Under the pieces are notes generated by a model that was given only the letters and a program-made list of their open reading frames with translations, was not told the DNA's origin and ran no database searches. This document shows, one piece after another, positions 11,695 through 53,984 of a DNA stretch of 64,000 nt. The stretch is from a bacterium (lineage in GTDB: Bacteria; Patescibacteriota; Saccharimonadia; UBA4664). The number at the start of each line of letters is the position of its first letter. Position 1 is the first letter of the stretch. The DNA is taken from the NCBI GenBank assembly GCA_016699105.1, contig CP064960.1, positions 1,223,436-1,287,435 on the forward strand, in the 5' to 3' direction. A program made the position numbers and the translations under genes.

Positions 11695-11724
11695 TATTTA
11701 GCATTATAACCGTTTTGGTTAAAG

Positions 11725-14684: not shown

Positions 14685-14778
14685 TTATAGCGCGGGATCA
14701 GATAGACGGCTAGAGTATTTGACTTACATATGCTTAAATGATAGCTCCGATTGCACTGTACCTTGAGAGGACGGCATC

Positions 14779-15266: not shown

Positions 15267-15321
15267 GTAGCTAGTATACCAACGGCATCCGAGATCCTAT
15301 ATACCGAGAGGAAGTGGAACC

Positions 15322-15510: not shown

Positions 15511-15527
15511 GATATGTAACGCAACGT

Positions 15528-15567
15528 CCGTTTCCCGGTCTATTCGACTGGGAAACGGGCACTTTTA
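15528..15567 (+). terminator. rho-independent terminator (9-bp GC stem CCGTTTCCC/GGGAAACGG plus T-run)
   Basis: Perfect inverted repeat followed by CACTTTTAT. Confidence 0.5.
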
Positions 15568-15570
15568 TAC

Positions 15571-22526: not shown

Positions 22527-22535
22527 GGAGCTCTT

Positions 22536-23814: not shown

Positions 23815-25950
23815 ATGAATACACTAGCTCTTTTAATCAACCGCTTACCTGTCTTCATTGTCGCATTGGGTCTCCTCCTCAGCGTGGGTGCTGGATATTA
23901 TGGCCTGCGAGTGTTCGATCATCTGAGTTCCGGTGGCTACGGCGATCCGGCTTCGGAGTCGTGGCGGGCTCAAGAGATACTCACTGAGCAATTCGATGGT
24001 CAGCGGACCGACGTTATATTGCTTCTCGAAACAACCGATGGTTCGGCTGTCACTACAGGTAATTTTACCAGTATCGCTCAGCGGATTTTGGCTGAAGCTG
24101 CAGCCACAGACGGTGTCGACAGGGTGACGAGCTACTATTCGACGGGTGCCGCGCAATTTGTTTCTAAGGACGGCCGGCAGACATTTGCCAGTTTGTCACT
24201 AGCGGGGAAAACTGATCAGGATCATCTCAAAGTCTACGAGCAGTTGACCGAACGTTGGCCAGATGAAGTCGATGGTCTCAAATTGAAATTTGGCGGATCG
24301 GTGGCCATCAATCAGCAGATCAGTAACCAGATTTCTGAGGATCTCAAACGCGCTGAAATGCTGAGCTTCCCTATTCTGGCCGTATTGCTGGTGTTGGTAT
24401 TTCGGAGCGTGGTGGCAGCGCTAGTGCCGCTGGGACTGGGGGCATTGAGCATTATAGTGGCCTTTGCACTCACCCGTTTGATTACGACAGTCACCGATGT
24501 GTCAGTGTATGCCATTAACGTTATTACCTTCATGGGACTGGGGCTGGCCATCGACTATAGTTTGTTTTTGGTCAGCCGATTTCGGGAAGAATTGGCCGCC
24601 GGTGCCACCTCCGATCAGGCGACGCGGATTACTTTGCGCACAGCTGGCCGGACGGTAGGATTTAGCGCCCTGACCGTAGTGCTGTGTTTGTTTGGATTGA
24701 CGATATTTCCGCAGCAATTCTTACAAAGTATGGGTTATGGCGGAGCGGCGGTAGTTGCAGCCACGGCACTGCTGGCTCTGACGGTACTGATGGCAGTATT
24801 GCGGCTACTGGGAGGACGGATTAACGCCTGGGCCTTACCGGGACTACATGCCCACGTCTCGCGGGAACCAGAACATGGATTTTGGTACCGTTATAGTCAT
24901 TTTGTGATGCGTCGGCCAGTCGCGATGTTGGTGTTGGCGCTCGGCTTGCTTTTGGCGGTCGGTTGGCCCTTCCTGAGAGCCCAATATACCCTGCCGGACG
25001 GCACATCGGTACCAACCAACTTGTCGAGCCGCTACGTGACTGATAGTTTGCAAAACAACTTTGCCAGCAGTGGAAGCGCTTTGAATGTAATACTTGAAGC
25101 TGATGGCCTGGTCACAGATGTGGCGCGGCAAACAGCCTTGCGCGCCTACACCGAGCGCTTGGCGGATGTCGAAGGAATTGGTGCTGCCCGAGTAACGGGT
25201 GTGAACGGCGCATTCGTCTTCGTTCAAGCCACCGAAAACAACCCCAGCCAGTCCGAGGCAGCCCGTGAGACCGTTGATCGCGTGCGGGCATTGGCGCCAC
25301 CAGATGCCTGGCAAGTCTATGTTGGCGGCCAATCAGCAGAGTTGGTCGATACATTGGATGGCATCGTACGGCAATTACCATGGGCACTACTCATCATCGC
25401 TGAAACGACATTTGTCCTGTTTGTACTTATGCTCGGAAGTGTGGTCATCCCGATTAAGGCGATGATCTTGAATATATTGTCGTTATCAGCAGCCTTCGGA
25501 TTGCTTGTATGGCTATTTCAAGACAGGCATTTGGCGGGTCTATTACACTTATCAGCCAATGGGAGTCTGGACGCCAACCAACCGGTGCTGATCTTTGCCA
25601 TAGCGTTTGGATTAGCGATGGATTATGAATTGTTTTTGTTGTCGCGAGTGAAAGAAGCCTATGACCGTACCGGCGACAATACGCTGGCGGTGGCTGAAGG
25701 CGTCGAGCGGACTGCGGGAATCATTACTTCCGCCGCCATTATGTTGGTGGTCGTAATCGGGCTATTTGCTACCAGTAAGATTTCCATCATTCAGCAAGTC
25801 GGGATAGGACTGGCAGCAGCGGTACTGATCGATGCGACCATCGTGCGTATGGTACTGGTGCCAGCAACTATGCAAATTCTGGGCAAGTACAATTGGTGGG
25901 CGCCAGCTTGGGTGAAACGGTTAGTTAATCGAGCAGGGTTACAGGATTAG
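23815..25950 (+). CDS. MMPL family RND-superfamily transporter
   Basis: 711 aa, two 6-TM bundles each followed by extracytoplasmic domains; MMPL signature blocks (..LSLLAAFGL.., ..AMDYELFLLSRVKE..). Confidence 0.8.
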   Translation: MNTLALLINRLPVFIVALGLLLSVGAGYYGLRVFDHLSSGGYGDPASESWRAQEILTEQFDGQRTDVILLLETTDGSAVTTGNFTSIAQRILAEAAATDGVDRVTSYYSTGAAQFVSKDGRQTFASLSLAGKTDQDHLKVYEQLTERWPDEVDGLKLKFGGSVAINQQISNQISEDLKRAEMLSFPILAVLLVLVFRSVVAALVPLGLGALSIIVAFALTRLITTVTDVSVYAINVITFMGLGLAIDYSLFLVSRFREELAAGATSDQATRITLRTAGRTVGFSALTVVLCLFGLTIFPQQFLQSMGYGGAAVVAATALLALTVLMAVLRLLGGRINAWALPGLHAHVSREPEHGFWYRYSHFVMRRPVAMLVLALGLLLAVGWPFLRAQYTLPDGTSVPTNLSSRYVTDSLQNNFASSGSALNVILEADGLVTDVARQTALRAYTERLADVEGIGAARVTGVNGAFVFVQATENNPSQSEAARETVDRVRALAPPDAWQVYVGGQSAELVDTLDGIVRQLPWALLIIAETTFVLFVLMLGSVVIPIKAMILNILSLSAAFGLLVWLFQDRHLAGLLHLSANGSLDANQPVLIFAIAFGLAMDYELFLLSRVKEAYDRTGDNTLAVAEGVERTAGIITSAAIMLVVVIGLFATSKISIIQQVGIGLAAAVLIDATIVRMVLVPATMQILGKYNWWAPAWVKRLVNRAGLQD

Positions 25951-26183
25951 TTAGTAGCGTGGAAACGACGCTGGATTTTCGAGCCATTCCCGATAAATAG
26001 AATCAACATTAGAATTATCAATATGTCTCTAGAATAGTGTTATATTGAGCATAATATATCTGGAATTAGCATGGAATCACTAAAAATTTATCGTTAAATT
26101 TACTTGGCCTTGCCATCCTCATAGGTTCAGTAGCACTAAGTTTACTATTATTAGTATTCGGCGGAACATTCGCGGTAGGATTA

Positions 26184-27101
26184 TTGCCATTCCTCATCAC
26201 TTCATCGGTTTGGGCAATAGTCGGCACTGTATTGATTTTGATTCCCTTATTGGTATTCCCATCTTTTCGCCATGGTATAGCGGCAATTATCTTGTTAGAA
26301 TCTTTGCTTTTTGGACTAAGCCTCTGGGTGTACAGCTTTCTGGTCACATATTCAAATTTTGGATTTATTGGTTTAATGATTGGTTTAATTTTCGCCGGTG
26401 TAGGGGTTACACCTTTGGCAATTATCGCTGTGCTGATACATAGTGATTGGTCTGTTTTCTGGAATCTAATTTATTTGTTTACTCTAACGATTGGTTCTAG
26501 AATAATCGCTTTTCAACTTGACGAATGGTCACTAAATACAACTTCAAGCGTTACTACCGACCGCGAACCAAAGATAGTCGCGGCGAATCGTGAACCAACT
26601 AGACCAAAGAATATCGCAGCCGTCAATAAGCTAAGTATTAAACGAAACCTAGATATAGGCTCAAAGCCACGGCATATAAACCAAGTTGTACTAGTCAATC
26701 AATTATCTGCTATAAAAACTGCTGATGCTTTGCCCCATCGATTACCGTCAAAGCCAGACTTACTTAAATCGAGATATGCGAGATTAGAAAGCCAAACGCT
26801 GTGGCGTGCCATCAAAGTTTTATATTGGCTATTAACTACCGTCGTATGCGTAACTTTTGTAATCGCTAGCATATCTGATAAAGCACATATGTACTCAGCG
26901 ATAATGACCAGTGCTATCACAATTCTTACAATGACATTTATCTACATTTTACTAAAAAAGATGGCAATATATGTTGCATATGGCTCCATTAGAGGCAAAT
27001 ATGAAATCGAAAGAATTCCATATGTATCTTTAGCAATCCTTTTAATGTTAGCTGCTGCCATAGCTGGCCTATACACCTATGTGCAAATGAACACAAATTA
27101 A
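26184..27101 (+). CDS. hypothetical polytopic membrane protein (AT-rich island)
   Basis: 305-aa ORF with multiple TM helices, AT-rich codon usage unlike flanks; no recognisable domain. Confidence 0.3.
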   Translation: MPFLITSSVWAIVGTVLILIPLLVFPSFRHGIAAIILLESLLFGLSLWVYSFLVTYSNFGFIGLMIGLIFAGVGVTPLAIIAVLIHSDWSVFWNLIYLFTLTIGSRIIAFQLDEWSLNTTSSVTTDREPKIVAANREPTRPKNIAAVNKLSIKRNLDIGSKPRHINQVVLVNQLSAIKTADALPHRLPSKPDLLKSRYARLESQTLWRAIKVLYWLLTTVVCVTFVIASISDKAHMYSAIMTSAITILTMTFIYILLKKMAIYVAYGSIRGKYEIERIPYVSLAILLMLAAAIAGLYTYVQMNTN

Positions 27102-27328
27102 ACAAACCTCTAGTGGTGCCATCTCGCTGGTCAGTCGCGCTGAGTTGGTTTTATCATGTCTTTTAAAAAGTTTCGTAAAATCGACATTCATTCGTCTACC
27201 GAACCCTGCTCTATGGGTTATCGGGCTCAGGTCCAGTGTTCTCCGATACAAACCTGACACAATGATCGGGATTTTGCATTGGAAGTCCTGTGTCGGCAGC
27301 CTCAGAACTTATCTTAGACCGATAACAT

Positions 27329-28751
27329 CTACATCATCAAGAAATAGTCCAAAGGTACGGCAACAACAGTATTTTGGGCTAGAAGTTGCAAAGGTCCGTC
27401 AGATACCGATAGGCCGTAATCACATTTTACGCGTTGCATTGTTGTAACGACCTGCCGAGAAGTTTTATCGCCGCGTCCAACCTCAATGGCAATTTGCCTT
27501 CGTGCGCCAATTTTTAAAATAAAATCCGCCCCTCCTTCTGCACTATCATATGTGATAGAACCTGCACCTTTTGACGCGAATTCTCTGTAAAGATGTAGAC
27601 CCGCTACGTCTTCTAGTAGACGTCCCTCACGGGTCATGGACGTACCTTGCGATCCAGCAACACTAAAGAATGCTGCACGGATTGTCGGGCTCATAAAAAG
27701 GAATTTTGATGGCTTTTTTGAAGCATTTAATGCCGATCCTTGCGGCATAACACGGACAAGCAGTTCAGCCTGCACTAAAGCATCCAGGACTGTGGCAATC
27801 GTAATATGGCTTATGCCAAGTACTCGCGAGAGCTTAATATTACTTATGGCGTCGCTCTCGGCCAAAATGAATAGAAGGCGTTTTACTGCAAGTACCGTAT
27901 CGGCGTCGAACTTTCCTAACTCTTGAATATCTCGAGATACGACTTTATCCACCGTAGCTAGGACTGCGTCATAAACGTCGGGTAAAGTACGTTCTGCGAG
28001 CGCAAAAGGTAGACTACCGGCTGCTAGGTAATGTCGGACATGCCTTTTATCTGCGCGCGCCCAATACTGGTTAACTCTAACTTCTAGCGTCTTAAGATTT
28101 TTGTAAACCTCACTGGCTGACGTTGACGAATACAGGGCATCTTTCACTGCCTGCTTGAGGCTTGGATTGCTCGAAGGGTAGATGTCTCTGGCTAGCATCT
28201 CGTATTCACAGAAGCTTAACGGGTAAAGTTTTTCAACACTAGCACGCCGACCCGATATATCTGCACTGGCCTGAATATGTACGGCCGATGATCCCGAACA
28301 TGCCAAGAAGACCCTTTTCGATCGATCATTGAGAGACTTGAGTACGGCAGCCCAGTTAGGGTCAGCCTGGACTTCATCGATGAGGATTATAGTTGGCTTA
28401 TTTTGGGCTTCATATGTCTCGCCCAATAGGCTTTCATACTCATTAAGTATCGCGTTAAGGTTGGCCCCAACTAGCTCTATCGCTTCATCCAGAGAGAAAT
28501 ATAGAAGATTAACACTATCTCCATACCGAGCAACTACATCATAATATGTCTGAGCAAGAATAGTCGTTTTGCCGGTACCACGAAGTCCCGATAATTACCC
28601 AATTTTTATGGTAGGGTGTCTCCTCCATAAATTGACGAATGTATTGCTCGGCTTTTACATAAATGTGACGTTTTGGGTAAAACTTTCCCTTTTGGATTAA
28701 AAACATACTTTTGTAGACGCTGCTTACCGGATGCAAGTTGGCGCTGCACAT
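27329..28751 (-). CDS. AAA+ ATPase of the COG1373 / AAA_14-DUF4143 family (homopolymer frameshift near the P-loop)
   Basis: Walker A GLRGTGKTT and Walker B IILIDEVQ; C-terminal DUF4143-like region. Adding one G in GGG joins NWVIIG|GLRGTGKTT. Start uncertain. Confidence 0.6.
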
Positions 28752-29072
28752 AATTTAATACATCTTGGTTCATATCTATTACTATACTCCATTTATATAA
28801 TAGGGCAAGTCTTTATATGATTACACTTTAGTAATATACTCTGATTATATTTAAGACCTTGACAAAAGCAAGGGCAGACCAAGCTTTCTATGGCTTACAA
28901 CTATAGACAAGCCAAAAAAACGGAACACAAGATTTCGCTTTTTTTGGAAAAAGGCTCTTTTTTGGCCAATAGCTCTGATAAGCCTCTACAGTGGCCGTCG
29001 TTTAAGTGACTTACCTCGTCGATGAAACTCTGCCTTGCAAGCTGACGGGTTCGGGTTCGGTGTTCTCAATAT

Positions 29073-29099
29073 AAAACCCCAAGACAAGCTTGGGGTTTT
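29073..29099 (-). terminator. bidirectional rho-independent terminator (AAAACCCCAAG-acaag-CTTGGGGTTTT) downstream of tRNA-Ala
   Basis: 7-bp GC stem flanked by A-run and T-run. Confidence 0.6.
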
Positions 29100-29103
29100 A
29101 TAT

Positions 29104-29179
<76 letters not shown>

Positions 29180-34400: not shown

Positions 34401-35150
34401 TTATATATAGTCTTCAAACGTAGCCGTAATCGGCAAATGGTTTGAATAAGGTGTTTCAAGTACTTCGGCGGCGGTTTGGCGCAGGTCAGGGGTACTGAAA
34501 AGGTAATCTAGGCGCCAGGCAAGTTCGTGGACGTCGTATTGATTTTGGCCAAAAGGCTTGGTCGTCCAGGTCGGTTCGACCGGATTTGGTCCCCGGGGTT
34601 CGAGTATTTGGCAAAAGTCTTCGTAGGTGTGGCTGGGCGGTGTGGCTCCGAGGTCGCCCCCGAAGATGTAGCGCTGTTGACGGGCACCAATCAACCCCAG
34701 TAACCGCTCGGTTTCGACATCTTTGGCCACCGAATTGGTGAAGTTTTCAGTATAACTGGCAGCGGCTGTCCCGACCGTGATTTCGGTGCCATCTGGTAAC
34801 TCGATGGTAGCTTCGACATAAGCCCGGTATTTGTCAGCAATAGCTTCGCTGGCGCCGGGTTGGCTAAACCAGATAGTTTTAGTGGTACCAATCGGATGTT
34901 TACTCAAGATCGTGCTTGCCAGGGTCAGGGTTGTGCCATCGGGGGCTTCGAAGGGCATATCTTTGTACTGCGCATGATAGCCCAAGGCAGCAGCAAGAAA
35001 ATCTGGTGAATTGGGCACGTCTTGGTGCGGATCACCGATGGTTAGCTCTTGAAGCGTCATAATATCGGCGGGATGCTCAGCTAAAAAGCCGGCTATGTGG
35101 TGGACGTTTTCTTGGTACCAGGTGTTCCATTGAAGTACGGTGATAGTCAT
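34401..35150 (-). CDS. endonuclease/exonuclease/phosphatase (EEP) family protein
   Basis: Start at MTITVLQWN; N-terminal QWN.W and C-terminal ..GGDLG..SH..D blocks typical of EEP fold. Confidence 0.55.
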   Translation of the reverse strand: MTITVLQWNTWYQENVHHIAGFLAEHPADIMTLQELTIGDPHQDVPNSPDFLAAALGYHAQYKDMPFEAPDGTTLTLASTILSKHPIGTTKTIWFSQPGASEAIADKYRAYVEATIELPDGTEITVGTAAASYTENFTNSVAKDVETERLLGLIGARQQRYIFGGDLGATPPSHTYEDFCQILEPRGPNPVEPTWTTKPFGQNQYDVHELAWRLDYLFSTPDLRQTAAEVLETPYSNHLPITATFEDYI

Positions 35151-35229
35151 GGCTCTATCATAGCAAACTAAAACCCGAAAAAATGCTATATTTAAGCATA
35201 AGAAATTATATTTAGAAGGGTTACCAGAC

Positions 35230-35817
35230 GTGGCAAAACGGGCTCCGAAAGGCAGTATGAATATCAATTGGTCTGTGCTCAAAGCGATGGGTATTGTTTG
35301 TTTGGTAATCGTCCAAATCCTAGAGTTTGTATTCTTGATGGAAGTTGCTAATAATTCGGCTAATCTCCAGACATATACCTTTCAAAATGTACTGATCGAC
35401 TCAATTCGCGGCTTAAATACTGAGCCCGCGCAAGACATTGCAACTGGCAAATTTTATATTCCGGCTTCGCGGTTGGTTTTGCCAGCAACAAGCACGAATG
35501 TTTATTATCGGAGTGCATCGACCGATGCGATTGCCTTGCTCGACCGTACCACTCAAGACCAAGCCATTACCGCTATTCGAAACACCCACGAAACGGCCGA
35601 CATTTACAAAGGCGTCGGTGCAGCTCAAGCATGCAGCAGGCAGGTTATCGGGGTTTTCAAAGGTGAACCGTCGGACTACTTTGGAAGCGACAATTATAGC
35701 GCTCAGCCGTCAAAGACCCTCAAGGATGGGCGTATTTTGCGTCTGTATGTCGACAATGAATGCCCCTTGCCAGCGGCGACGTTATTGAACGCTATTAATG
35801 AGATGAACTCATACTGA
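35230..35817 (+). CDS. hypothetical secreted/membrane-anchored protein
   Basis: N-terminal hydrophobic helix then soluble domain; no recognisable motif. Confidence 0.3.
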   Translation: MAKRAPKGSMNINWSVLKAMGIVCLVIVQILEFVFLMEVANNSANLQTYTFQNVLIDSIRGLNTEPAQDIATGKFYIPASRLVLPATSTNVYYRSASTDAIALLDRTTQDQAITAIRNTHETADIYKGVGAAQACSRQVIGVFKGEPSDYFGSDNYSAQPSKTLKDGRILRLYVDNECPLPAATLLNAINEMNSY

Positions 35818-35882
35818 TTCAGCTAAGCCTGTAGTGGTTGAGAATGCAGATAGCATTGATAGATGGCAATTTTCCGCACAGC

Positions 35883-36242
35883 TTATGAATTGACCATAAA
35901 ATCGGGCGGCAAGTCATGAACAGCATCTTTTGACGCCGTATCAGTTTGCACAACCCAACGGGCTAGTTTGACCATTGCCATCGGTTTAATCACAAGGCGA
36001 TGACCGTTTAATGCGAGGAATATTACCAAACATGTAACAGCCATCCGCTTATTCCCATTTTCGAGCGGGTGGTTCTTACTTATCATGTAGAAAAGGTTTG
36101 CAGACTTATTTAGTAAGGAGTCGTAATACGGCAATTTAATTTGCTGTAAGCAGCTGTCAAACCTTTTACGGGCTACTTCATTAAACTTTGGAATCGGTTC
36201 GGTATCGAGTTTACGCCCGATGACATCAGCAATATACTCCAC
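35883..36242 (-). CDS. doc: Doc (death-on-curing) / Fic family type II toxin
   Basis: Doc signature HPLENGNKRMAVT (cf. H-x-F-x-D/N-A/G-N-K-R); GTG start; ~119 aa. Confidence 0.65.
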   Translation of the reverse strand: MEYIADVIGRKLDTEPIPKFNEVARKRFDSCLQQIKLPYYDSLLNKSANLFYMISKNHPLENGNKRMAVTCLVIFLALNGHRLVIKPMAMVKLARWVVQTDTASKDAVHDLPPDFMVNS

Positions 36243-36262
36243 CTCTTCAACGGAGAGGTAGG

Positions 36263-36406
36263 TTATTCTTTGCTCAGTAATCGCAGGGTCTCCCCGTAAT
36301 CGGTAACGAGCAAATCTACATAGCGGTTAAGCTTATCCCGCTGCCCACCCGCAATTTGAGGGTTATCTCGCTTCTTAGTGAGAGCCCGTAAGAATTTCTT
36401 CAACAT
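36263..36406 (-). CDS. putative small antitoxin partner (47 aa) upstream of doc
   Basis: Unlisted ORF MLKKFLRALTKKRDNPQIAGGQRDKLNRYVDLLVTDYGETLRLLSKE immediately 5' of the toxin gene in the same orientation. Confidence 0.3.
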   Translation of the reverse strand: MLKKFLRALTKKRDNPQIAGGQRDKLNRYVDLLVTDYGETLRLLSKE

Positions 36407-36691
36407 AGGCCAATATTAATATCATAAGCGTTTTGGCACAAGCATAAGGGTGAAGACTAAGAGGATTTCTCCTAAAGTGCCCCCTGTCTCTCGTTTCCAG
36501 ACGAGAACAATTTGTGTTTTGTTATAAGTATGTTTTAAATGGTGGAGCTGGGGGATTGTCGCTAAAGCGACCTGCTCCTCCTCTTTTCTCACATATCCCG
36601 ATAAGCTTATGAGTCGGAGCTAGCCGAACCGGCGATGTTCGAATCAAACCCTTTCATTACAAAAACCCGACACGAGGTTGGGATTTTGTAA

Positions 36692-36764
36692 TGGTGGAGC
36701 TGGGGATTCGAACCCCCACCTCTGCAATGCGAATGCAGCGCTCTACCAAATGAGCTACAGCCCC
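36692..36764 (-). tRNA. tRNA-Ala (anticodon CGC), CCA encoded; T-arm/acceptor junction 2-3 nt short of canonical
   Basis: GGGGCTG acceptor with G3:U70, D-arm GCTC-ATTTGGTA-GAGC, anticodon loop TTCGCAT, T-loop TTCGAAT. Only 73 nt because the C/G run at the T-stem/acceptor junction is short. Confidence 0.8.
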
Positions 36765-36889
36765 ATGACTGATCCATTGTGCCAAGGTTCGCTACAAGCG
36801 TCAAGCAACAAATATAGCTTTTGTGTGATTATTGTGGTATAAATTTGTTTAGCGAATCGGCAATTTCCTTCGAGAGAAAAGAGAAAACG

Positions 36890-44638: not shown

Positions 44639-46381
44639 TTAGTCACCCGAAGCAACCTTGATTTCGATAGTAATCTTGTTGGTTCGGCCCGGTATACTCG
44701 TAGCCCATACTGGTTTGAGCGTAATTTCAACGTGAGCGACGCTGGGTTGGCGGGCAGCTAAAGTGACTGCGTCACCAAAGCGCTTACCGGCTAGTTCTTC
44801 AGCCAGTTTAGTTGTATCGATTTTGGCGCCGGAGTAGGCGTCGGTCGTGAGGTGGAAGACTTGTTTACCTTGCGCATCGGCACTGTCGGCCGTCAGTTGA
44901 GCAGATTTGAGACCATCATCGTAGATCTGGTTGGCTGCACCAACTTGCTTGTTTTCTAGGTCACGAATCAGTGACTCATACTCACCTTTTTTGACCGCTA
45001 ACGCGCTATAGACGGCTTTGAATGTAATCGTGCCTGACGGTCCCTCGCCGTCGACTGCAGGAGATGGTACGACGTCATTGGTGGTTGTTTTGCGCGAAGC
45101 CGCCAATATTAAGAATTCGGCTGGGGTAACGCCTTCGAGGGCTTTACTGATGTTGTCTTTGTCTTTCTCGACGGCCGCCGCTACCGCCGCATCCACATCA
45201 GCTTGGGTGACTACGGTAATCGTCTTACTAGTGCCGCCGGACATTTGGCTGCCCTTGGACGAGATACTATTTTGGCCAGTTTGCTGATTGAGGGGCAATC
45301 CCGGCATGGTATAGGTTGCGGGTGCTTGATTGTAACTATCACCGTTTTGGTCGGCAATAACCGCCACCGTGGCTGTTCCCGGCGTTGTGCAACCAAAGAA
45401 ATTACCTTGCCCACCCGGGACGATCACCTCGGCGGTGGAGCGGAATATTTTGCCGTCGGGCGATTGAAAACGGGTACCTTCGACATAGGTGTGGTTGGCG
45501 GCGTCCATACAATTGCTAATGGTAATGGTGCCCGTAGCTTTGGTACCAATGTCTTTTTTGCCAGTTGGGGTGAAGGTGGTGTTTAGATCACGGCTGGCCG
45601 ATAAACTCTGGCCGGCAAGTATGGCTTTATCAGATTGAGTAGTGGTAGATTTGGGGTCGACGGTGAAAGCGGCATCAATGCTGGTTTTGGTGGCATTGGC
45701 GTACAGCGTCACCTGAGCGGTGCTAAACATATACATGTAACCGAAGTAACCGCCGACAGCAAAGACAGCCAGACCAACCCACAGCAGGCGGCGTTTGAGT
45801 TTGCCATAACTGGGCACCTTGACTGCCCGGCGAACGGGGCCAGCTGGGGTAGCGTCAGATGCATCCGCATCCGCAGAATCGTCAGCGTTATCGCCGGTTT
45901 TCACGGGTTGCGTAACTGGGGTGGCATCGGATGTTGGTTGTTCGTCTTCGGGGACTTCTCGGCGGCGGAATTTGAGAGCCTTGGTTACCTTGGACTGAGG
46001 CTGCGTTACATCGTCAGCGACAGCAGCGGCGGCTTCAACCGGACCAACTGGGTCGGCAGCAGTAATGACTTCGTCTTCGAGATCGACTTTGGGTGGTGGC
46101 GCCGACTCTAAGACTACAGCTTTAGCACCGACTGATGTCGCGACAGCCAAGCCGGTGCGAGCAGCTAAATCGGTGGCAATTTTGTCATTGGTGACGAGAA
46201 CCAGTGATTTACCCCCGGCTTCGGCGGCTTTTTTGAGCAATTTGAGATTGATGATGCTTTGGAGCAGGCTCGAACGCTTGGGCACCACGATATGCACAGA
46301 TTCAGATGTCGCGTGACGCAGTTTATCTATAGCCGAGGTAATGTCTTCGTCGGCTTCGAGGTACAGGGCCTGATCTTTCAT
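44639..46381 (-). CDS. hypothetical large membrane-anchored exported protein
   Basis: ~95-aa cytoplasmic N-domain, acidic linker, one TM (LLWVGLAVFAVGGYFGYMYMF), ~380-aa Thr/Gly/Ala-rich extracytoplasmic region. Confidence 0.35.
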   Translation of the reverse strand: MKDQALYLEADEDITSAIDKLRHATSESVHIVVPKRSSLLQSIINLKLLKKAAEAGGKSLVLVTNDKIATDLAARTGLAVATSVGAKAVVLESAPPPKVDLEDEVITAADPVGPVEAAAAVADDVTQPQSKVTKALKFRRREVPEDEQPTSDATPVTQPVKTGDNADDSADADASDATPAGPVRRAVKVPSYGKLKRRLLWVGLAVFAVGGYFGYMYMFSTAQVTLYANATKTSIDAAFTVDPKSTTTQSDKAILAGQSLSASRDLNTTFTPTGKKDIGTKATGTITISNCMDAANHTYVEGTRFQSPDGKIFRSTAEVIVPGGQGNFFGCTTPGTATVAVIADQNGDSYNQAPATYTMPGLPLNQQTGQNSISSKGSQMSGGTSKTITVVTQADVDAAVAAAVEKDKDNISKALEGVTPAEFLILAASRKTTTNDVVPSPAVDGEGPSGTITFKAVYSALAVKKGEYESLIRDLENKQVGAANQIYDDGLKSAQLTADSADAQGKQVFHLTTDAYSGAKIDTTKLAEELAGKRFGDAVTLAARQPSVAHVEITLKPVWATSIPGRTNKITIEIKVASGD

Positions 46382-46509
46382 ACTATCTAGATTATCATAC
46401 TTGTTGTGCTGGAGGGTACCGTTTCACGTGGCTGTTGATTAATTACGAGTTTTAGTGTTTAATTTGATCGTTCAGAACCCTGAACAGCGGATCGACGAGA
46501 GGAGCCTCC

Positions 46510-46884
46510 ATGGCTCGCAAGGAAACTATCATCTTGGTCGACGATGTGGACGGTAGTGAAGCTGTCGAGTCGATCGAATTCGCCCTCGATGGCGTGACCT
46601 ACGAGATCGACGTATCGGCTGTGAACGCTCTTCAGCTGCGCGCTGCGATCGGCCATTGGGCGCATCATGCTCGGACAGTCAAGATGAGCAAGGCCAAGCG
46701 CTTTGCGGGGCGTAAGTCTCCCAAGCCCAAGACTGTGGTGGAACCTGACACTGCCACCGTGCGCGCCTGGGCGAACTCGAACGGTTATAACGTTGGTAAG
46801 AGTGGTCGTATCTCCAAGGCCGTGCGCGAAGCTTTTAGCGCTGCCCAGCAGAAGGTAGCACCGACGAAGAAGCATAAGCGCTAG
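46510..46884 (+). CDS. lsr2: Lsr2-like nucleoid-associated protein (H-NS-like xenogeneic silencer)
   Basis: N-terminal dimerisation domain (ETIILVDDVDGSEAVESIEFALDGVTYEIDVSAVNA), C-terminal DNA-binding domain (VRAWANSNGYNVGKSGRISKAVREAF) with RGR-like clamp. Confidence 0.7.
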   Translation: MARKETIILVDDVDGSEAVESIEFALDGVTYEIDVSAVNALQLRAAIGHWAHHARTVKMSKAKRFAGRKSPKPKTVVEPDTATVRAWANSNGYNVGKSGRISKAVREAFSAAQQKVAPTKKHKR

Positions 46885-47207
46885 TCTTTCGGGAGGAATT
46901 CATGCGGTTTTCAGATCTGATTGCCACCGTGGTACTGCGTTTTTGCCATTAAGTCAGTTAGTCAACTGGCTCGGTCTCGGAGACGTGACCGAAGATGGTC
47001 TACCATGGGCTTGGCAAGATGACCACTGGGGCGATGACGCGCCTAACGCGCAACGGCGTCAGCGGCATACTTTCAAGCGCCGAACCCGGCTCTACCCCAT
47101 TGTGGCAGGCTTGGCTGCCGGCGTCACCGGATACACCGTACTTGGTTGGAGATCCAAAGGCTAGAATATGGGCCCGTCGCCACCTGGTGACGGGCCCATA
47201 ACCATAT

Positions 47208-47950
47208 TCAGGGACGTGATGACAGCGCAATATTATCAGTCATACCAATATATTTGGCCGGGCGAAAAGCTGATGGTACGACATCAATGTTTATAAATGT
47301 TCGAATACCGTGGGCTAATAAAGTATTCATAGCAGCCATTGGTGGAGCTTGTCCGCCCGGTAAATTCCAATTTATAGCTGTGGCAAAGCTGCCGACCGTG
47401 GAAATCATGTGTTGAGTTATTTCATCAACTTCAGTAGCCAGGCGATGCGGGTAAGTCCGTGCCGAGCAAATTGTTGTCACTCCAGTTTGGTGGTGAAGAT
47501 CTTTGACGACTGATACTGGCAAATCTTCATATGGCCAGTGTGGTTCAATCGTTATTTCTGGAGGGTATGGTTTGAATAAAAGTGTATCTACCCATGAGTG
47601 AAATACGACCCGGTGGGATCCAAATTGATTTATTATTTCGGCAATTCTAGGAATGGCACGGACATCTTTGCAATCGATGACCAGATACATACTGCCTTGT
47701 TTATACACAGCAGCGATGACTTCTTCGAGCGCAACATTTTTGGGCAATGGTAAATCTTTAAATTTGTAAAACTTTCGGGATGACCGACATAAAGCTCATC
47801 ATTTTGATTTACCGAAACATCCATTTCAAGGCTTCTGCCAGATTGCACTGCCGACTCAAGGATAGACTGTGTAATTACATGCGTATGAAAATATGTGAAT
47901 TGGGAGTGGTGTTTCAAGAAGAAATAGCTCGAGATTGCTAGTTTGCGCAT
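47208..47950 (-). CDS. glycerophosphodiester phosphodiesterase (GDPD/PI-PLC-like) family protein, frameshifted (~47640-47740)
   Basis: N-terminal FHTHV...LEMDVSVNQNDELYVGHP matches GDPD catalytic-His/Glu-Asp block; C-terminal half in second frame. Weak. Confidence 0.4.
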
Positions 47951-49212
47951 GAGGGTATCGGTCGTAGATTCGCCGCCGACGAGATCGAGGCCCAGATTGG
48001 CTAGACCCATGGGCGTAATGTCAGCGAAGCTCGTGAGTTTGCCAGTGGTATCTTTGACCCGACTGACTTCGGCGGGACTGATGTGGCTGACGCTAGGCCG
48101 ACGGGCAAAGGGCAAGTTTTTGTACCAGTCTTTGCCTTTAAGGGCTTCGGTGATTTGAGGCAAACCAGTGCCACCGCCACAGAGTAAGATCTTGCTGGGC
48201 AAATGGTCAACTTTATCGAATTCTCCGAGCGACAGTTCAACGCCAGATAACCACACTTCGATGTCACCGCTGACGGCTTCTTCGACGGCGGCCTTGGATT
48301 TGGGTCCAAGTTGACCCTGACTATAGGCAATTTTCATGGCTTCGGCTTTTCGAAACTCAAATTGGCGGTTTGAGCGAGACGCTTGGTGAAACTGCGGCCG
48401 CCAATGGCAAACATTTTGGTGCCTTCGACTCCCCCATTATTGACTAAAGCAATATCGGTCGTGCCACCACCGATATCGATGAAAATAGCGCTGAATTCAC
48501 CAGAATCTTGGCCGCCAACTGACTTGGCAACGGCGAAGGGCTCGGCGGCAATATTGATGAGGTTGAGGTCTAGATCTTGGGCTACCGATTGGAGGGCACC
48601 CAGGTGAACCATGGGCGCAAAAGCATTAAAGAGCTGAATAGCCACATCTTTACCCTGAAACCGATGGGGTTGGTGACGCGATAGCCATCAATATGTACAT
48701 CGACAATAGCCGTGTTGACCAGTTTGACTTCGAGTTCTTTGTAGCCAGTCTCCCAAGTAAGCTGCTCGCGAGCCGCTCGAAAGCCCGGTATTGCACCCGG
48801 TCGAGAATCTTACGCAATTCGGTCATGTCGATGGGATCGGTCGATTTGTTGCGTTGGTAGCGCACCGTGGTAGTGGCACCTTTGACGAGTTCTCCAGCGA
48901 TACCAATGACCGTGGGCACTTTGGCGACTGAAGTACCAGCCATTTTTCGGCAATCTTGAGGGCGGCGTCGCAGTTTTCGACTACGCCGGCGATATCAGTG
49001 ACCGTACCAGATTGCATATCGGTTAACCGTTGGCGTTGGCGGCCAACACCAGTGATATTGACCGAGGCCGGAGCCCCCGACGACGGGTCCATGACCACTT
49101 CACCGATGAGGGCTTTGACGAATTCGGTACCAATATCTAAAGCCACAAGCTTACGCGGCCCGGTGTCTTTGGACCGGAACTTGGGAATTTTGGCGAGGAG
49201 TTGGCCTTTCAT
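47951..49212 (-). CDS. ftsA: cell division protein FtsA (actin-like ATPase), fragmented over four frames
   Basis: LVALDIGTEFVKALIGEV (phosphate-1), IDIGGGTTDIALV (phosphate-2), ILLCGGGTGLPQITEAL (adenosine motif) on consecutive ORFs. 3' end uncertain. Confidence 0.6.
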
Positions 49213-52009: not shown

Positions 52010-52051
52010 GGGCACCTGGACTACAAAGTCCAGGTGCCCGTAATGCTTTTT
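52010..52051 (+). terminator. rho-independent terminator (13-bp stem GGGCACCTGGACT/GTCCAGGTGCCC plus T-run) between convergent genes
   Basis: Perfect inverted repeat with 5-nt loop followed by GTAATGCTTTTTACTC. Confidence 0.6.
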
Positions 52052-53984
52052 ACTCTAACACGGCTTTGATGCGCCGGATGCCGGCGGAGCTTGATTCTTC
52101 TTTTTTAATCTTATAGCGCTTGCCGGCTTCGCCCAAAAGACCTGTGTGTTCAACATGTGGTCCACCACAAATTTCTTTGCTAAACCATTCACCATCGGGG
52201 TCACCAGCGGTATAGACTTTGACGGTGTCACCGTATTTGTCGCCGAATGCACCTAGAGCGCCTTCTTTAAAAGCTTGGTCGGTCGGGATTTCGCGGTAGC
52301 TCATGGGATAATCGGCGACAATGGCGTCGTTGACGATTTGCTCAACTTGAGCTATTTGCTCCGGAGTCATTTTCTCGGGATGGCTAAAATCAAACCTGAG
52401 GCGCTCGGGCGTTATGTTTGATCCACGCTGAATGACATGATCACCGAGTACCATTCGCAAGGCTTTGTAACCAAGGTGTGTAGCGGTATGATATTTGATC
52501 GAGACGTCTGAATGGTCGGCCAAACCGCCTTTGAACTGACCGGCAAAAGCGGTGCGAGAGCGCTCTTTTTGCTCGGCCATAAGTTGATTTGCCTTATCAA
52601 CTGCGTCGGGCGCTAAATCAATCTGTCGATTGTGTGCTTCTTCTATTGCTAGTTCAAAAGGATAGCCATAGGTATCAAATAATGTAAACAAAATTTCGCC
52701 GGTGATTGTCGACTCTTTGGGATCGGAATAGGACACTTTGCGCCTATTATTTTGGGCAGTGAATCTATCAAATTCGCGCAATCCCCTTTCCAGGGTACTA
52801 CGGAACTGCTTTTCTTCACGAACGAGTGTTTCGATGACAGTTGCCTTGTGTTCGCGGACCTCGGGGTAGTCGTCGCGGTATAAGTCGGCGATGACTGGAA
52901 TGGCTTTGCCTAAAAAGTCGTCCTTGAGTCCGAGAGCGTGTGCCTGGCGGATGGCTCGGCGTAAGAATCGCCGGAGGACATAACCTTGGGCGGTGTTTGA
53001 GGGCACGACACCATCGACGGCTAAGAACGTGGCCGCCCGTAAGTGGTCGGCTATGACGCGCATGGCGAACGCATTGTCGTTATAAGACTTGCCAGAGAGT
53101 TTTTCCAGAGTTTCGACGATTGGCCAGAGCAAGCTAATCTTAAACATGTCTCCACTACCCTCGACAGCTTGAGCGATGCGTTCAAGGCCGCCACCGAAAT
53201 CAACTTCGGGTTTGGCTAACGGTTCGAGTCCGCCATCCTCAGTTTTACGAAATTGCATAAATACGGAATTGCCCACTTCGACAAAGCGGCCACAGTCGCA
53301 ATTGGGATGACACTTCTCGCCCCATTTTGGATCGTGCTCGATGTGGGGAAATTCATAGAACACTTCGGCACAAGGCCCACAGGGATCGCCGGCGGGCGTG
53401 GTCGCCGGGCCTTTTTCGCCGCGATTCCACCAATTTTTCTTGCCATCATAGAGGAATATCCGTTCACCGGGGTTCATACCACGGGCGGCACCAGCATCAC
53501 CGGATCCCATTTCAACTACTTGAGGGTCGGCAATACCAGATTGCCGGTATAGTTTCTGCCATAATTCGATCGATTCGGTGTCGGGACCGATGCCAAATTC
53601 GGCGTCGCCGATGAAAGCCGTGACATACAACCGTTGCGGATCAATTTTGATTTCCTCGGTGAGAAATTTCCAGAACCACGGCAACTGTTCTTGCTTGAAG
53701 TAACTACCGAGACTCCAATTACCCAGCATCTCGAAGAAGGTGGTGTGACGATTATCGCCGACTTCATCAATGTCTTCGGCTCGAAAACATGTTTGCGAGT
53801 CGGCTAACTTGTCACCATCAGGATGGGGCTCGCCGAGCAGATACGGCACGAGAGGTTGCATACCGGATCCGGTAAACAAGGTGGTGGGATCTTCTTTGGG
53901 AACTAAATTAGCTCGTGGAATAATGGCATGGCCATTTTTGGCCATAAACTCAAGATAAGCACGGCGGATGTCGTTAGCATTCAT
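52050..53984 (-). CDS. alaS: alanyl-tRNA synthetase (short form, 644 aa, lacking C-Ala domain)
   Basis: Class II motifs (FTGSGMQP, ..FEMLGNWS..), tRNA-recognition region and editing-domain HxxxH...C (HTATHLGYKALR..., ..GGPHV). Confidence 0.9.
   Translation of the reverse strand: MNANDIRRAYLEFMAKNGHAIIPRANLVPKEDPTTLFTGSGMQPLVPYLLGEPHPDGDKLADSQTCFRAEDIDEVGDNRHTTFFEMLGNWSLGSYFKQEQLPWFWKFLTEEIKIDPQRLYVTAFIGDAEFGIGPDTESIELWQKLYRQSGIADPQVVEMGSGDAGAARGMNPGERIFLYDGKKNWWNRGEKGPATTPAGDPCGPCAEVFYEFPHIEHDPKWGEKCHPNCDCGRFVEVGNSVFMQFRKTEDGGLEPLAKPEVDFGGGLERIAQAVEGSGDMFKISLLWPIVETLEKLSGKSYNDNAFAMRVIADHLRAATFLAVDGVVPSNTAQGYVLRRFLRRAIRQAHALGLKDDFLGKAIPVIADLYRDDYPEVREHKATVIETLVREEKQFRSTLERGLREFDRFTAQNNRRKVSYSDPKESTITGEILFTLFDTYGYPFELAIEEAHNRQIDLAPDAVDKANQLMAEQKERSRTAFAGQFKGGLADHSDVSIKYHTATHLGYKALRMVLGDHVIQRGSNITPERLRFDFSHPEKMTPEQIAQVEQIVNDAIVADYPMSYREIPTDQAFKEGALGAFGDKYGDTVKVYTAGDPDGEWFSKEICGGPHVEHTGLLGEAGKRYKIKKEESSSAGIRRIKAVLE

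Follow-up and report, generated by a model that had tools for sequence, protein, structure and literature searches.

A diverged Lsr2-family protein in a Saccharimonadia genome, most likely acquired from Actinomycetota or their phages

The lsr2 locus and its host lineage

The window analysed here, a stretch of 64,000 nucleotides from contig CP064960.1, carries an lsr2 gene on its forward strand at 46510..46884 (ATG start, stop codon counted in the coordinates) that encodes a protein of 124 aa. A Shine-Dalgarno sequence, GAGAGGAG (46497..46504, forward strand), ends 5 nt before the ATG, and a putative promoter (TTGATT - 17 nt - TTTAAT; 46435..46463, forward strand) was read by eye within a 128-bp AT-rich (GC 0.44) divergent intergenic region. 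A scan of 46200-47400 for consensus sigma-70 promoters and intrinsic terminators called nothing, the putative promoter going unflagged because its -10 element has no A at position 2. Overlapping this promoter, an A/T-run scan found two runs of at least 8 bp that contain AATT (46438-46445 and 46458-46465, together spanning 46438..46465); AATT is the preferred Lsr2 core (PMC8476142), and these runs are candidate autoregulatory sites to which the protein would bind. Downstream, an 87-aa orphan gene in the same orientation (46902..47164, forward strand) starts 17 nt beyond lsr2, is preceded by a Shine-Dalgarno of its own (GGGAGG) and is probably co-transcribed with lsr2; its product has a single predicted C-terminal TM helix, its GC3 is 0.625, and its reading frame, which a 1-nt indel in a homopolymer interrupts in the window, is intact in three Illumina contigs (L001, L002 and L004). 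Between this gene and a convergent 237-aa gene lies a GC-rich hairpin (inverted repeat I6, 47167..47200; 16-nt arms, 94% complementary, 2-nt loop), which the terminator scan did not call because it has no T-run, and which is terminator-like and would end the lsr2 transcription unit. The 237-aa gene (47208..47920, reverse strand), an AT-rich (GC 0.42) orphan that is frameshifted in the window and intact in L001, fills the remainder of a variable slot bounded by an FtsA-like gene and a conserved ~580-aa gene. The annotated flanks are core genes (GlxA-barrel protein, YceG, FtsA-like protein and AlaRS), an arrangement unlike the panC/lysS/clpC-type neighbourhood of an actinobacterial lsr2 (P0003 in L006). 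Neither the 87-aa nor the 237-aa gene matched a Pfam or PHROG family, and the ~580-aa neighbour had no PHROG match.

Structurally, the product of 46510-46884 is a genuine two-domain Lsr2-family nucleoid-associated protein. It matches PHROG 1223 ('nucleoid associated Lsr2-like', E=5.6e-27) and two Pfam models, with residues 1-57 (46510..46680, forward strand) forming the N-terminal dimerisation/oligomerisation domain (PF11774, E=4e-22, 78 bits against a cut-off of 29.6), and residues 79-112 (46744..46845, forward strand) forming a helix-loop-helix C-terminal DNA-binding domain (PF23359, E=6.9e-14, 51.4 bits against a cut-off of 26.9). A sequence search of the PDB recovered the N-domain of Mtb Lsr2 (4e1p, E=7e-13) and its C-domain (2kng/6qkp, E ~2e-3), while a search of NCBIfam with the 124-aa protein found no matching Lsr2 model. 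The AlphaFold model (pLDDT 78.5) shows a beta-beta-alpha fold in the N-domain and two helices (residues 81-90 and 103-116) in the C-domain, with a disordered linker between the domains, and in Foldseek comparisons the modelled N-domain aligned to 4e1p with a TM score of 0.82, an rmsd of 1.6 Å and 55% identity, and the modelled C-domain to 2kng with an rmsd of 0.9 Å over 32 columns; C-domain identity to Mtb is 36-47%, below that of the N-domain. In alignments, the N-domain keeps all of the family-invariant residues D11/D12, F24, D27, Y31-E32-I33-D34 and R44, and the C-domain keeps the invariant columns R85 (the Mtb R84 phosphate contact), W87, G92, G99 and R100, so that both the Gly-Arg core and the phosphate-contacting Arg are present (G99, R100 and R85 being invariant in two alignments). 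The first-pass annotation had read Lsr2 in both the dimerisation and the DNA-binding domain and had tied that call to a significant HMM hit; it is borne out by strong matches to both Pfam models and by the PDB sequence and predicted-fold matches. An identical protein is deposited as QQR52449.1 ('MAG: Lsr2 family protein [bacterium]') on a 1,322,297-bp contig.

Lsr2 is regarded as the Actinobacteria-specific counterpart of H-NS, found also in actinophages. The contig described here is not actinobacterial and its host is a member of Saccharimonadia (Saccharibacteria/TM7, CPR), which places the protein outside the described distribution of the family, a matter of residence and not of structure. 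The named close homologs of its AlaRS (65-77% identity) all belong to Ca. Saccharimonadia, Saccharibacteria or Patescibacteria, and the gene order AlaRS ... FtsA-like ... 580-aa protein, RuvX, YceG is common to two Saccharimonadia contigs (L009 and L010), which answers the caution, raised when the gene was first noticed, that an actinobacterial contig would take away the novelty. The genome is at least 1.32 Mb long, and the window has a GC content of 0.514 (48.6% AT). A mis-assembly or mis-binning that brought an actinobacterial fragment into a CPR MAG might be suspected from the error-prone long-read assembly (10 gap openings per 4 kb relative to an Illumina contig) and from the elevated GC3 of lsr2, but Saccharimonadia core genes lie on both sides of the gene in the 1.32-Mb contig, lsr2 with the same neighbours and junctions recurs on four independent short-read contigs from two SRA series, the GC content of lsr2 (57.6%) lies below that of actinobacterial loci (61.5-76%), and actinobacterial sequences among the cluster representatives all show at most about 51% identity. 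Contamination was therefore rejected on AlaRS, synteny, the four short-read assemblies and gene GC, and we consider such an artefact effectively refuted. To our knowledge, every known host of cultivated Saccharibacteria belongs to Actinomycetota. Saccharibacteria are epibionts of Actinobacteria and naturally competent (PMC10633639), and by analogy with the cultivated members (PMC10633639, PMC11659515) this organism would also live on Actinobacteria.

A one-arginine hook, a lysine-rich linker and a basic tail

The AT-hook-like loop of the protein, K97-S98-G99-R100 (46798..46809, forward strand), departs from the canonical T-R-G-R in that the first Arg of the hook is replaced by Ser (S98) and a Lys (K97) stands one position earlier, giving the context V-G-K-S-G-R-I-S where Mtb has V-S-T-R-G-R-I-P. 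The 'RGR-like' clamp of the first-pass annotation thus holds for the Gly-Arg core, in which G99 and R100 are invariant, and fails for the first Arg; with S-G-R, the protein falls outside the both-arginine R-G-R type, which defines the canonical subtype and not the whole family. Arg occupies the first hook position in 105/109 sequences, with Lys in 3/109 and Ser in 1/109, and in a count comprising the window protein and its 149 nearest 50%-cluster representatives the tripeptide is RGR in 123/150, deviates in 27/150 and is SGR in 2/150.

Between the two domains, residues 58-78 (46681..46743, forward strand) form a disordered, Lys-rich basic linker, in which residues 63-76 have a pLDDT <50 and the segment SKAKRFAGRKSPKPK is rich in K/R. 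The whole protein contains 13 K and 9 R, whereas its actinobacterial-type homologs (P0003-P0011, P0013 and P0014) have 1-5 K and 10-20 R. Alignments also delimit a basic C-terminal tail, QQKVAPTKKHKR (residues 113-124; 46846..46881, forward strand), which canonical Lsr2 lacks and which has a comparable counterpart only in two phage- or prophage-borne relatives (P0189 and P0012). In architecture, length class and both Pfam domains, the protein resembles Mtb Lsr2 (Rv3597c; 4E1P/4E1R, 2KNG/6QKP) and the Lsr2 of Actinomycetota, and with Mtb Lsr2 it likewise shares the two-helix C-domain, the Gly-Arg loop, the R84-equivalent and a basic disordered linker; it differs from them in its S-G-R rather than R-G-R hook, its Lys-rich rather than Arg/Gly-rich linker, and its extra basic tail.

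Judging by analogy with characterized proteins, a one-Arg hook can still function. CgpS, whose motif is RGI, is a silencer of AT-rich DNA in C. glutamicum; single Arg-to-Ala substitutions in Lsr2 and in H-NS reduce binding but do not remove it, and Ler has VGR (PMC5137423). CgpS shares with the window protein an Lsr2-type, one-Arg, horizontally acquired character (PMC5137423), but it is only 21-26% identical to Lsr2, prophage-located and actinobacterial, whereas the window protein is of canonical type with no prophage context; the CgpS hook (RGI) is also missing its second Arg, and that of the window protein (SGR) its first. A functional analogy extends to the H-NS (QGR) and Bv3F (RGR) proteins of Proteobacteria, whose AT-hook-like loops enter the minor groove, although their fold and ancestry are unrelated to those of Lsr2. 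QGR-type H-NS proteins occur in genomes of 42-59% AT and RGR types in GC-rich genomes (PMC8476142), and the Q of H-NS and the S described here would be parallel cases of an uncharged polar first hook residue in a moderately AT-rich genome (PMC8476142). On the other hand, an SGR hook might bind too weakly for silencing, because the double substitution RGR-to-AGA abolishes binding (PMC8476142).

Origin of the gene

Evolutionarily, lsr2 most likely entered this lineage by horizontal transfer, with Actinomycetota, their phages or their mobile elements as the source. A tblastn search detected no Lsr2 (E>0.1) at the syntenic position in the Saccharimonadia relatives L009 and L010, and a divergent copy hidden in that slot was considered and rejected, as its small genes (114, 90 and 143 aa in L009; 127 and 79 aa in L010) lack similarity. 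The GC3 of lsr2, 0.672, is the highest among 49 window genes (z=2.7) and is reached by 0.7% of equal-length in-frame segments. All of its Lys codons are AAG (13/13), compared with 32% AAG in 37 other genes (P ~4e-7), a signal that may partly reflect expression-linked codon choice; S16 and LeuRS on the L106 contig described below favour AAG too, and the window lacks ribosomal protein genes against which codon usage could be checked. Among 6,610 Lsr2-like matches in 1.84e9 cluster representatives, only the protein itself scored below 1e-30; its best non-self match is 49-51% identical, and it stands as a singleton at 50% identity. The GTDB loci among the matches listed (at least 600), the best 80 included, are all from Actinomycetota, the window's own genome not being among them; all named top profile matches are likewise from Actinomycetota, and every phage record with Lsr2 (393/393) is an actinophage. 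More generally, all relatives that are named or identifiable by context belong to Actinomycetota or lie on a phage-like or mobile contig, though other non-actinobacterial carriers of Lsr2, including CPR, may exist. The foreign-origin part of the gene transfer initially proposed for this gene is thus upheld by its absence from the slot in relatives, its top-ranking GC3, its singleton status at the 50% level and its actinobacterial or phage-borne relatives; an ancient Saccharimonadia Lsr2 with many losses would be a conceivable, less probable alternative. Natural competence and the binding of prophage are plausible routes of transfer, and a host prophage has been reported to bind TM7x and to infect it to a limited degree (PMC13578794).

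The donor could be either the host chromosome or an actinophage or mobile element. In neighbor-joining trees with few bootstraps, which place the protein with neither, it sits on a long branch (4th longest of 103) whose sister is unstable, the commonest bootstrap sisters being phage-borne (P0016, P0012 and L102). In raw identity, cellular actinobacterial Lsr2s (up to 50-57%) are closer than cultured-phage copies (at most 42%), and 13 relatives found in an IMG/VR scan are each at most 44% identical. The window protein belongs to the same family as the actinophage 'Lsr2-like DNA bridging proteins' (PHROG 1223; PMC8612146), and phage and mobile copies commonly have variant hooks (K/T/V/A-GR), Lys-richness and tails, as it does.

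These resemblances also bear on the possibility that lsr2 is the cargo or leftover of a phage or mobile element, serving (or having served) that element rather than the host chromosome and perhaps decaying; in that service it might silence the element's lytic genes or hamper resident silencers. Relatives with its unusual traits (an X-G-R hook, Lys-richness and a basic tail) lie mostly on phage-like or mobile contigs (L092, L091, L107, L108, L109 and L005), one of which (L092) encodes a tape measure, a tail protein and an excisionase-like HTH, and with CgpS an Lsr2-like silencer encoded by a prophage is already on record (PMC5137423). The tree sisters named above and the variable slot itself, with its two orphan genes of mixed composition, point the same way. 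In contrast to actinophage copies, however, no phage genes were seen around lsr2: no integrase, phage structural gene or other PHROG match was found in the slot, its flanks are core genes, and no convincing att-like or direct repeats flank it. By these neighbours the gene falls outside the phage- or prophage-encoded class, for which structural, integration or replication genes would be expected nearby. A co-transfer of the 87-aa and 237-aa genes with lsr2 was likewise rejected, neither neighbour having a tblastn match in the 100 fetched loci or a Pfam or PHROG family. The lsr2 ORF, moreover, is intact and 100% identical in five assemblies, cellular actinobacterial Lsr2s are nearer than those of cultured phages, and DNA of phage origin would be compatible with present domestication as a host nucleoid protein. 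We regard such a cargo or leftover as unlikely.

A second Lsr2 was found on L106, a Logan contig (SRR26188675) from a Patescibacteria-like, distantly related chromosome of 47.8% GC that is collinear with the window. NusB is 60%, RNase III 53% and LeuRS, over three aligned segments, 40-49% identical between the two; LeuRS was discarded as a taxonomic yardstick, as a Thermus LeuRS scores about equal to the NUDIX-interrupted LeuRS of the window, and relatedness was judged by NusB, RNase III and synteny instead. The L106 Lsr2 (P0286/P0184/P0287) is also Lys-rich with a one-Arg hook, R-G-P, and has TTGATT-N17-TATAAT upstream. Its GC3 is 0.68, against 0.39-0.59 in 18 neighbouring genes, and since ribosomal protein S16 has a GC3 of 0.42 in L106, high GC3 is not an expression signature there. 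The gene lies between khpA and rpsP, a locus other than that in the window, and the two Lsr2s are 40-44% identical, each being nearer to actinobacterial sequences than to the other. A separate acquisition is therefore likely on the grounds of locus, hook and identity, and together the two genes suggest repeated capture.

AT-rich targets and the proposed role

The AT-rich islands that the first-pass annotation placed at 26-29 kb are real, and the strongest candidate binding or silencing target in the window is the island at 25901..29100, adjoining tRNA-Ala(GGC), where GC falls to 0.34-0.45 from 0.514 for the window and A/T runs of at least 7 bp number 14-15 per kb (mean 4.2). A second AT-rich patch, adjoining tRNA-Ala(CGC) at 35101..36700, is also a candidate target, as is the neighbouring 237-aa gene, a candidate xenogene in a bin (47-48 kb) that is among the densest for A/T runs. 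AT-rich islands are 2-3.5 times enriched in A/T runs over the window mean. The background is itself dense: the window has 8.1 A/T runs of at least 6 bp per kb, whereas 80 actinobacterial loci have a median of 0.16 per kb. The host, a CPR Saccharimonadia genome with 49% AT in this window, differs from published Lsr2 hosts, which have 27-35% AT (median 29.5% AT; PMC8476142). These counts describe the substrate landscape for a possible member of the xenogeneic silencers (H-NS, MvaT, Rok, Lsr2), a functional class that prefers DNA richer in AT than its resident genome, oligomerises along DNA or bridges it, and silences acquired genes.

From these features, we consider it probable that the window encodes an Actinomycetota- or phage-derived Lsr2 that has diverged in Saccharimonadia, with a weakened hook, into an AT-tract nucleoid protein or silencer suited to a genome of 51% GC. 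After landing, the gene would have gained its Lys-rich linker and basic tail, with S-G-R replacing R-G-R. Mechanistically, the N-domain would dimerise and then oligomerise, the Gly-Arg loop of the C-domain would enter the narrow minor groove of A/T tracts with help from R85, K97 and the basic linker and tail, and the oligomers would stiffen or bridge DNA and occlude promoters. Because A/T tracts are ~50 times denser than in actinobacterial DNA, a full RGR clamp would bind almost everywhere; a one-Arg hook should cut per-site affinity, so that stable filaments would form only where tracts cluster, namely at the islands at 26-29 kb and 35-36 kb, at the neighbouring AT-rich gene and at the lsr2 promoter itself. 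On this model, the protein would be a general component of chromatin that also silences AT-rich accessory DNA, and selective 'xenogeneic' discrimination is doubtful because an A/T tract occurs roughly every 125 bp. Of the steps in this account, family identity, host lineage, foreign composition and patchy distribution were observed, and the donor, expression, DNA binding and targets are inferred.

The uneven conservation of the two domains (55% identity and TM 0.82 for the N-domain, 36-47% identity for the C-domain) would also fit a host-directed mimic or counter-silencer that hetero-oligomerises with the Lsr2 of the actinobacterial host or of a shared phage, de-repressing host genes and prophages or blunting phage infection in the manner of dominant-negative N-terminal fragments of CgpS and H-NS. 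Both CPR-resident Lsr2s lack one clamp Arg (SGR in the window, RGP in L106), lone N-terminal domains can counter-silence even across species (PMC5137423), a host prophage is induced by association with TM7x (PMC13578794), and productive phage infection is reported to need mycobacterial Lsr2 (PMC10066036). Such a mimic would need to reach the host cytoplasm, but the sequence has no signal peptide or obvious secretion signal, no secretion-system genes are among the neighbours examined, and delivery of such cargo from a Saccharibacterium is hypothetical, the whole idea being inferential; the DNA-binding domain is otherwise intact (R85, W87, G99 and R100 conserved), which argues for continued use in DNA binding. 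We consider both this role and its effects on the host very unlikely. A bolder scenario, speculative and improbable in our judgement, is that Saccharibacteria have repeatedly captured Lsr2 from their hosts or their hosts' phages and that the copies double as mimics engaging the host-actinophage Lsr2 network, where they would hetero-oligomerise with host or phage Lsr2 and tune the silencing of host genes and prophages or resist shared actinophages. In a weaker version, the convergent degeneration of the hook could be adaptive, a silencer of GC-rich genomes having been retuned to mid-GC ones.

With the probable reading of a nucleoid protein or silencer with a weakened hook in mind, this is a known family in an unexpected phylum, and neither a new mechanism nor a new family; our literature search found nothing linking Lsr2 with Saccharibacteria, Patescibacteria, CPR or TM7. 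The label 'Lsr2 family protein' is already present in the NCBI record. For the organism, the gene would be a molecular trace of gene flow from Actinomycetota or their viruses to CPR epibionts, could serve as a host-association marker for uncultured Saccharibacteria, and adds a candidate for a chromatin or silencing role in a phylum where very little is known of how genomes are regulated. Because Saccharibacteria can now be manipulated genetically (PMC10633639), these ideas are testable. For the Lsr2 family, it would represent a natural experiment in which an AT-hook silencer tuned to GC-rich DNA has been retuned in a mid-GC genome, with RGR giving way to SGR or RGP and Arg to Lys, in parallel with QGR versus RGR in H-NS proteins and RGI in CgpS.

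Domains and DNA-binding hook of the Lsr2 protein

The lsr2 ORF occupies positions 46510-46884 of the forward strand, exactly as the first-pass annotation had placed it, and encodes 124 aa from an ATG start, with a Shine-Dalgarno sequence (GAGAGGAG) 5 nt 5' of the ATG. Its reading as an Lsr2 in both domains was borne out by significant hits to two curated Pfam models, PF11774 for the dimerisation domain (residues 1-57, E=4e-22, 78 bits, cut-off 29.6 bits) and PF23359 for the DNA-binding domain (residues 79-112, E=6.9e-14, 51.4 bits, cut-off 26.9 bits), and by a PHROGs match to 'nucleoid associated Lsr2-like' (E=5.6e-27). Sequence comparison against solved structures matched the N-domain (4e1p, E=7e-13) and C-domain (2kng/6qkp, E ~2e-3) of Mycobacterium tuberculosis Lsr2. 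An AlphaFold2 model built from 15 homologs (mean pLDDT 78.5) predicted an N-domain of beta-beta-alpha fold, a linker disordered over residues 63-76, and two C-terminal helices with a connecting loop, and in Foldseek the modeled domains superposed on 4e1p (TM 0.82, 1.6 Å, 55% identity) and 2kng (0.9 Å across 32 columns). Every homology criterion places the protein in the Lsr2 family, from which it departs in two respects only, the canonical RGR tripeptide and the described host range, given in the literature as Actinobacteria (median AT 29.5%; PMC8476142).

The AT-hook-like tripeptide had been annotated as RGR-like; aligned with M. tuberculosis Lsr2 (V-S-T-R-G-R-I-P), however, the window protein reads V-G-K-S-G-R-I-S, making its hook S-G-R. 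Of the 109 sequences in a first sample, 105 had R at the first hook position, three had K, and one had S. In a second, comprising the window protein and its 149 nearest 50%-cluster representatives, 123 of 150 carried RGR and 27 deviated, two of them with SGR; the canonical tripeptide defines a subtype. The hook glycine and second arginine are near-invariant in these samples, and the window protein retains both (G99, R100) together with R85 and every invariant N-domain residue in the alignments. It also has K97, a lysine-rich linker, and a basic tail; the whole protein contains 13 K and 9 R, whereas homologs of the actinobacterial type have 1-5 K and 10-20 R. Experimentally, an RGR-to-AGA double mutation abolished binding (PMC8476142), whereas single Arg-to-Ala mutants bound less but were still able to bind, and the proven silencer CgpS also has a one-arginine hook (RGI), with VGR in Ler (PMC5137423).

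Genomic setting and composition of lsr2

That this Lsr2 lies outside an actinobacterial context, as first proposed, held up. All named close homologs of the window alanyl-tRNA synthetase (AlaRS, 52050-53984; 65-77% identical) belong to Ca. Saccharimonadia, Ca. Saccharibacteria, Ca. Saccharimonas, or the 'Patescibacteria group', and relatives' contigs have a common gene order of TatD, NifS-like, DUF218, CvpA/CAP, MnmA, NUDIX, and AlaRS, followed farther along by FtsA-like, the ~580-aa protein, RuvX, and YceG. The window also holds many housekeeping genes, and its GC is 51.4% versus 61.5-76% at 80 actinobacterial lsr2 loci. An identical protein, QQR52449.1 ('MAG: Lsr2 family protein [bacterium]'), is on a contig of 1,322,297 bp, and at 1.32 Mb or more this contig belongs to the upper part of the reported Saccharibacteria size range, that of larger genomes from natural and engineered environments (PMC11659515). 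These homologs, gene order, GC, and size show that the contig belongs to the CPR and not to the actinobacteria. Four short Logan contigs carry the identical Lsr2 with the same neighbors. Contamination or mis-assembly is effectively excluded, because the junctions recur in four independent assemblies and the intermediate GC of lsr2 is unlike actinobacterial DNA.

The window derives from an indel-prone long-read assembly: between 43000 and 50000 it differs from L001, an Illumina contig of the same organism, by homopolymer-type indels (10 gap openings in 4 kb), with lsr2 unbroken and neighboring ORFs broken. Because of these indels, apparent frameshifts in the Obg, LeuRS, FtsA-like, 87-aa, and 237-aa genes (split ORFs at 39787-41057, 11725-14684, 47633-48645, and 46902-47164) are probably assembly errors, not pseudogenes. 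LeuRS (11725-14684, reverse strand), in two ORFs probably split by a sequencing indel, carries a NUDIX hydrolase domain (PF00293, E=2e-16) directly after the editing (CP1) domain, at residues 386-512 of its 737-aa N-terminal ORF; the 812-aa LeuRS of the related Patescibacteria-like contig L106 is without this insert.

Between the FtsA-like and 580-aa genes, the window holds three genes, lsr2 and two orphans of 87 and 237 aa. Two related Saccharimonadia contigs (L009 and L010; AlaRS 72% and 70% identical) carry other small genes there, with nothing resembling Lsr2 in that interval (tblastn E>0.1). Compositionally, lsr2 (GC 0.576) has the highest GC3 of the 49 window genes (0.672, z=2.7; mean 0.532, sd 0.052), a value reached by 0.7% of equal-length in-frame gene segments, and all 13 of its lysine codons are AAG, versus 68% AAA in 37 other genes (P ~4e-7). 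Expression could account for part of the AAG signal, since the highly expressed rpsP of L106 also prefers AAG, but not for the GC3 signal, since that rpsP has a low GC3 (0.42).

The 87-aa gene (46902-47164, forward strand; GC3 0.625), predicted to encode a single-pass membrane protein, starts 17 nt 3' of lsr2 with its own Shine-Dalgarno, and the two are probably co-transcribed, with a GC-rich hairpin (47167-47200, 16-nt arms) ending the 87-aa unit ahead of the AT-rich 237-aa gene (47208-47920, reverse strand; GC 0.42). No Pfam or PHROG family was found for either orphan. The divergent neighbor of lsr2, the 580-aa protein (44639-46381, reverse strand), is conserved in Saccharimonadia relatives, always followed by RuvX and YceG, its sole Pfam match being a marginal GlxA beta-barrel (27.2 bits, cut-off 27). 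Elsewhere, at 21918-23309 (forward strand), an ORF of 202 aa containing a metalloprotease motif of the JAMM/MPN-like type (WHSHMGGHAGFSDKD) precedes a ThiF/E1-like protein (PF00899, E=8e-25) in a local high-GC patch (22-23 kb, GC 0.584); they may form a gene pair of the ubiquitin-like conjugation or defence type and might represent a further foreign insert.

Relatives, donor, and a second CPR Lsr2

An exhaustive HMMER scan of 1.84 billion representatives, standing for ~15 billion proteins, returned 6,610 Lsr2-like proteins; the query alone scored below 1e-30, and the top non-self matches were 49-51% identical. Among the GTDB species-representative matches listed, the best 80 loci (no more than 50% identical) came without exception from Actinomycetota, including Brachybacterium, Kineosporiaceae, Cellulomonas, Nocardioides, Arthrobacter, and Nocardia, and the named top matches of a profile search likewise all belonged to this phylum. 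All 393 cultured-phage Lsr2 records were from actinophages (≤42% identical), and 13 IMG/VR contigs carried relatives (≤44%). The near relative P0003 is encoded beside panC, QRPTase, and a class-II aaRS (Lys/Asp type by Pfam) on a contig of 71.5% GC, a neighborhood that we take to resemble the mycobacterial lsr2 region. Because synteny, composition, distribution, and the identity of the relatives' hosts combine, the window lsr2 is best read as acquired horizontally from the gene pool of actinobacteria.

To this extent the suggested host-derived transfer stands; the donor may have been either a host chromosome or an actinophage. In neighbor-joining trees with few bootstraps, the window protein sat on a long branch (4th longest of 103) with an unstable, most often phage-borne sister (P0016, P0012, L102). 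By raw identity, the closest sequences were cellular actinobacterial Lsr2s, which reached 0.50-0.57 on conserved columns. Most relatives with an X-G-R hook, lysine-richness, and a basic tail come from contigs of phage-like or mobile character (L092, which encodes tape-measure and tail proteins, L091, L107, L108, L109, and L005). All but the last are metagenomic phage- or prophage-like, with non-canonical hooks (K/T/A-GR), high lysine, and some long basic tails; L108 is a prophage-like stretch of an actinobacterial MAG that includes SsgA, and L092, a siphovirus-like fragment (52% GC), encodes an Lsr2 that has RAWANSNGYNV in common with the window protein. Either route is plausible: cultivated Saccharibacteria, which live as epibionts on Actinobacteria, have natural competence (PMC10633639), and a Schaalia host prophage binds TM7x, with limited infection (PMC13578794). 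A phage or mobile-element leftover serving the element and not the cell would also fit the variable slot and the affinity that similar variants show to phages, but the locus yielded no phage gene, integrase, or repeat and lsr2 is intact across assemblies, so we consider this unlikely.

Another Lsr2, the lysine-rich P0286, is encoded at 7362-7745 of L106, a 135-kb Logan contig (SRR26188675; GC 47.8%), in a chromosomal context of trmD, khpA, lsr2, rpsP, rnc, NUDIX, and nusB, with leuS and murF farther on. The L106 backbone is collinear with window 728-18051 (NusB 60%, RNase III 53%, LeuRS 40-49% over three aligned segments, MurF 45% identical), and its NusB scores 153 bits against window NusB, versus 62 against that of M. 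tuberculosis and at most 81 against any solved NusB; this sequence evidence places L106 outside the actinobacteria, as a more distant relation of the window organism. The lsr2 of L106, with an upstream promoter-like TTGATT-N17-TATAAT, is the GC3 outlier of its locus (0.68 versus 0.39-0.59 in 18 neighboring genes), and the cluster to which its protein belongs at 90% identity comprises three members, each on a contig of its own. The L106 protein has an R-G-P hook and lies between khpA and rpsP, whereas the window protein has S-G-R and lies in the FtsA-like/580-aa slot; they are only 40-44% identical, the L106 copy ranking 211th among 253 in similarity to that of the window, and each is nearer to actinobacterial sequences than to the other. 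Over only ~100 alignable columns, the simplest reading would be independent capture in two CPR lineages. The weakened hooks of both copies, the better conserved oligomerisation half of the window protein, and the fact that N-domains alone work as counter-silencers (PMC5137423) could suggest a host-directed mimic or counter-silencer; with an otherwise intact DNA-binding domain and no secretion signal or delivery system found, we regard this as very improbable.

Candidate targets and biological meaning

A/T runs of at least 6 bp occur at 8.1 per kb in the window versus a median of 0.16 per kb in the 80 actinobacterial loci, and AATT at 4.9 versus 0.32 per kb. Because a full-strength RGR clamp would here meet a site roughly every 125 bp, we propose that the one-arginine hook may lower per-site affinity, such that stable Lsr2 oligomers would form only on clustered A/T tracts. 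This would parallel the finding that H-NS of the QGR type occurs in genomes of 42-59% AT, with RGR-type proteins in GC-rich genomes (PMC8476142), and the suggestion that hook variation adjusts a silencer to its host (PMC5137423).

The AT-rich islands noted at 26-29 kb were recovered. A/T runs cluster in two candidate target islands, 25.9-29.1 kb and 35.1-36.7 kb, corresponding to AT-rich patches (25901-29179 and 35101-36765; GC down to 0.34) that adjoin tRNA-Ala genes (GGC, 29104-29179; CGC, 36693-36765). Both patches resemble accessory islands that have integrated, but no integrase was found among the ORFs scanned; genes in the first code for an AAA_14/DUF4143 ATPase and for a membrane protein of 305 aa that is an orphan. 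Further candidate targets are the 237-aa gene (47208-47920, reverse strand) and the lsr2 promoter region itself, where two AATT-containing W8 tracts overlap a putative TTGATT-N17-TTTAAT.

The NCBI pipeline already labels the protein 'Lsr2 family protein', and our literature search found no paper linking Lsr2 to Saccharibacteria or other CPR. For an Lsr2 in an unexpected phylum, host-to-epibiont (or phage-mediated) transfer followed by hook retuning offers a plausible and testable story.
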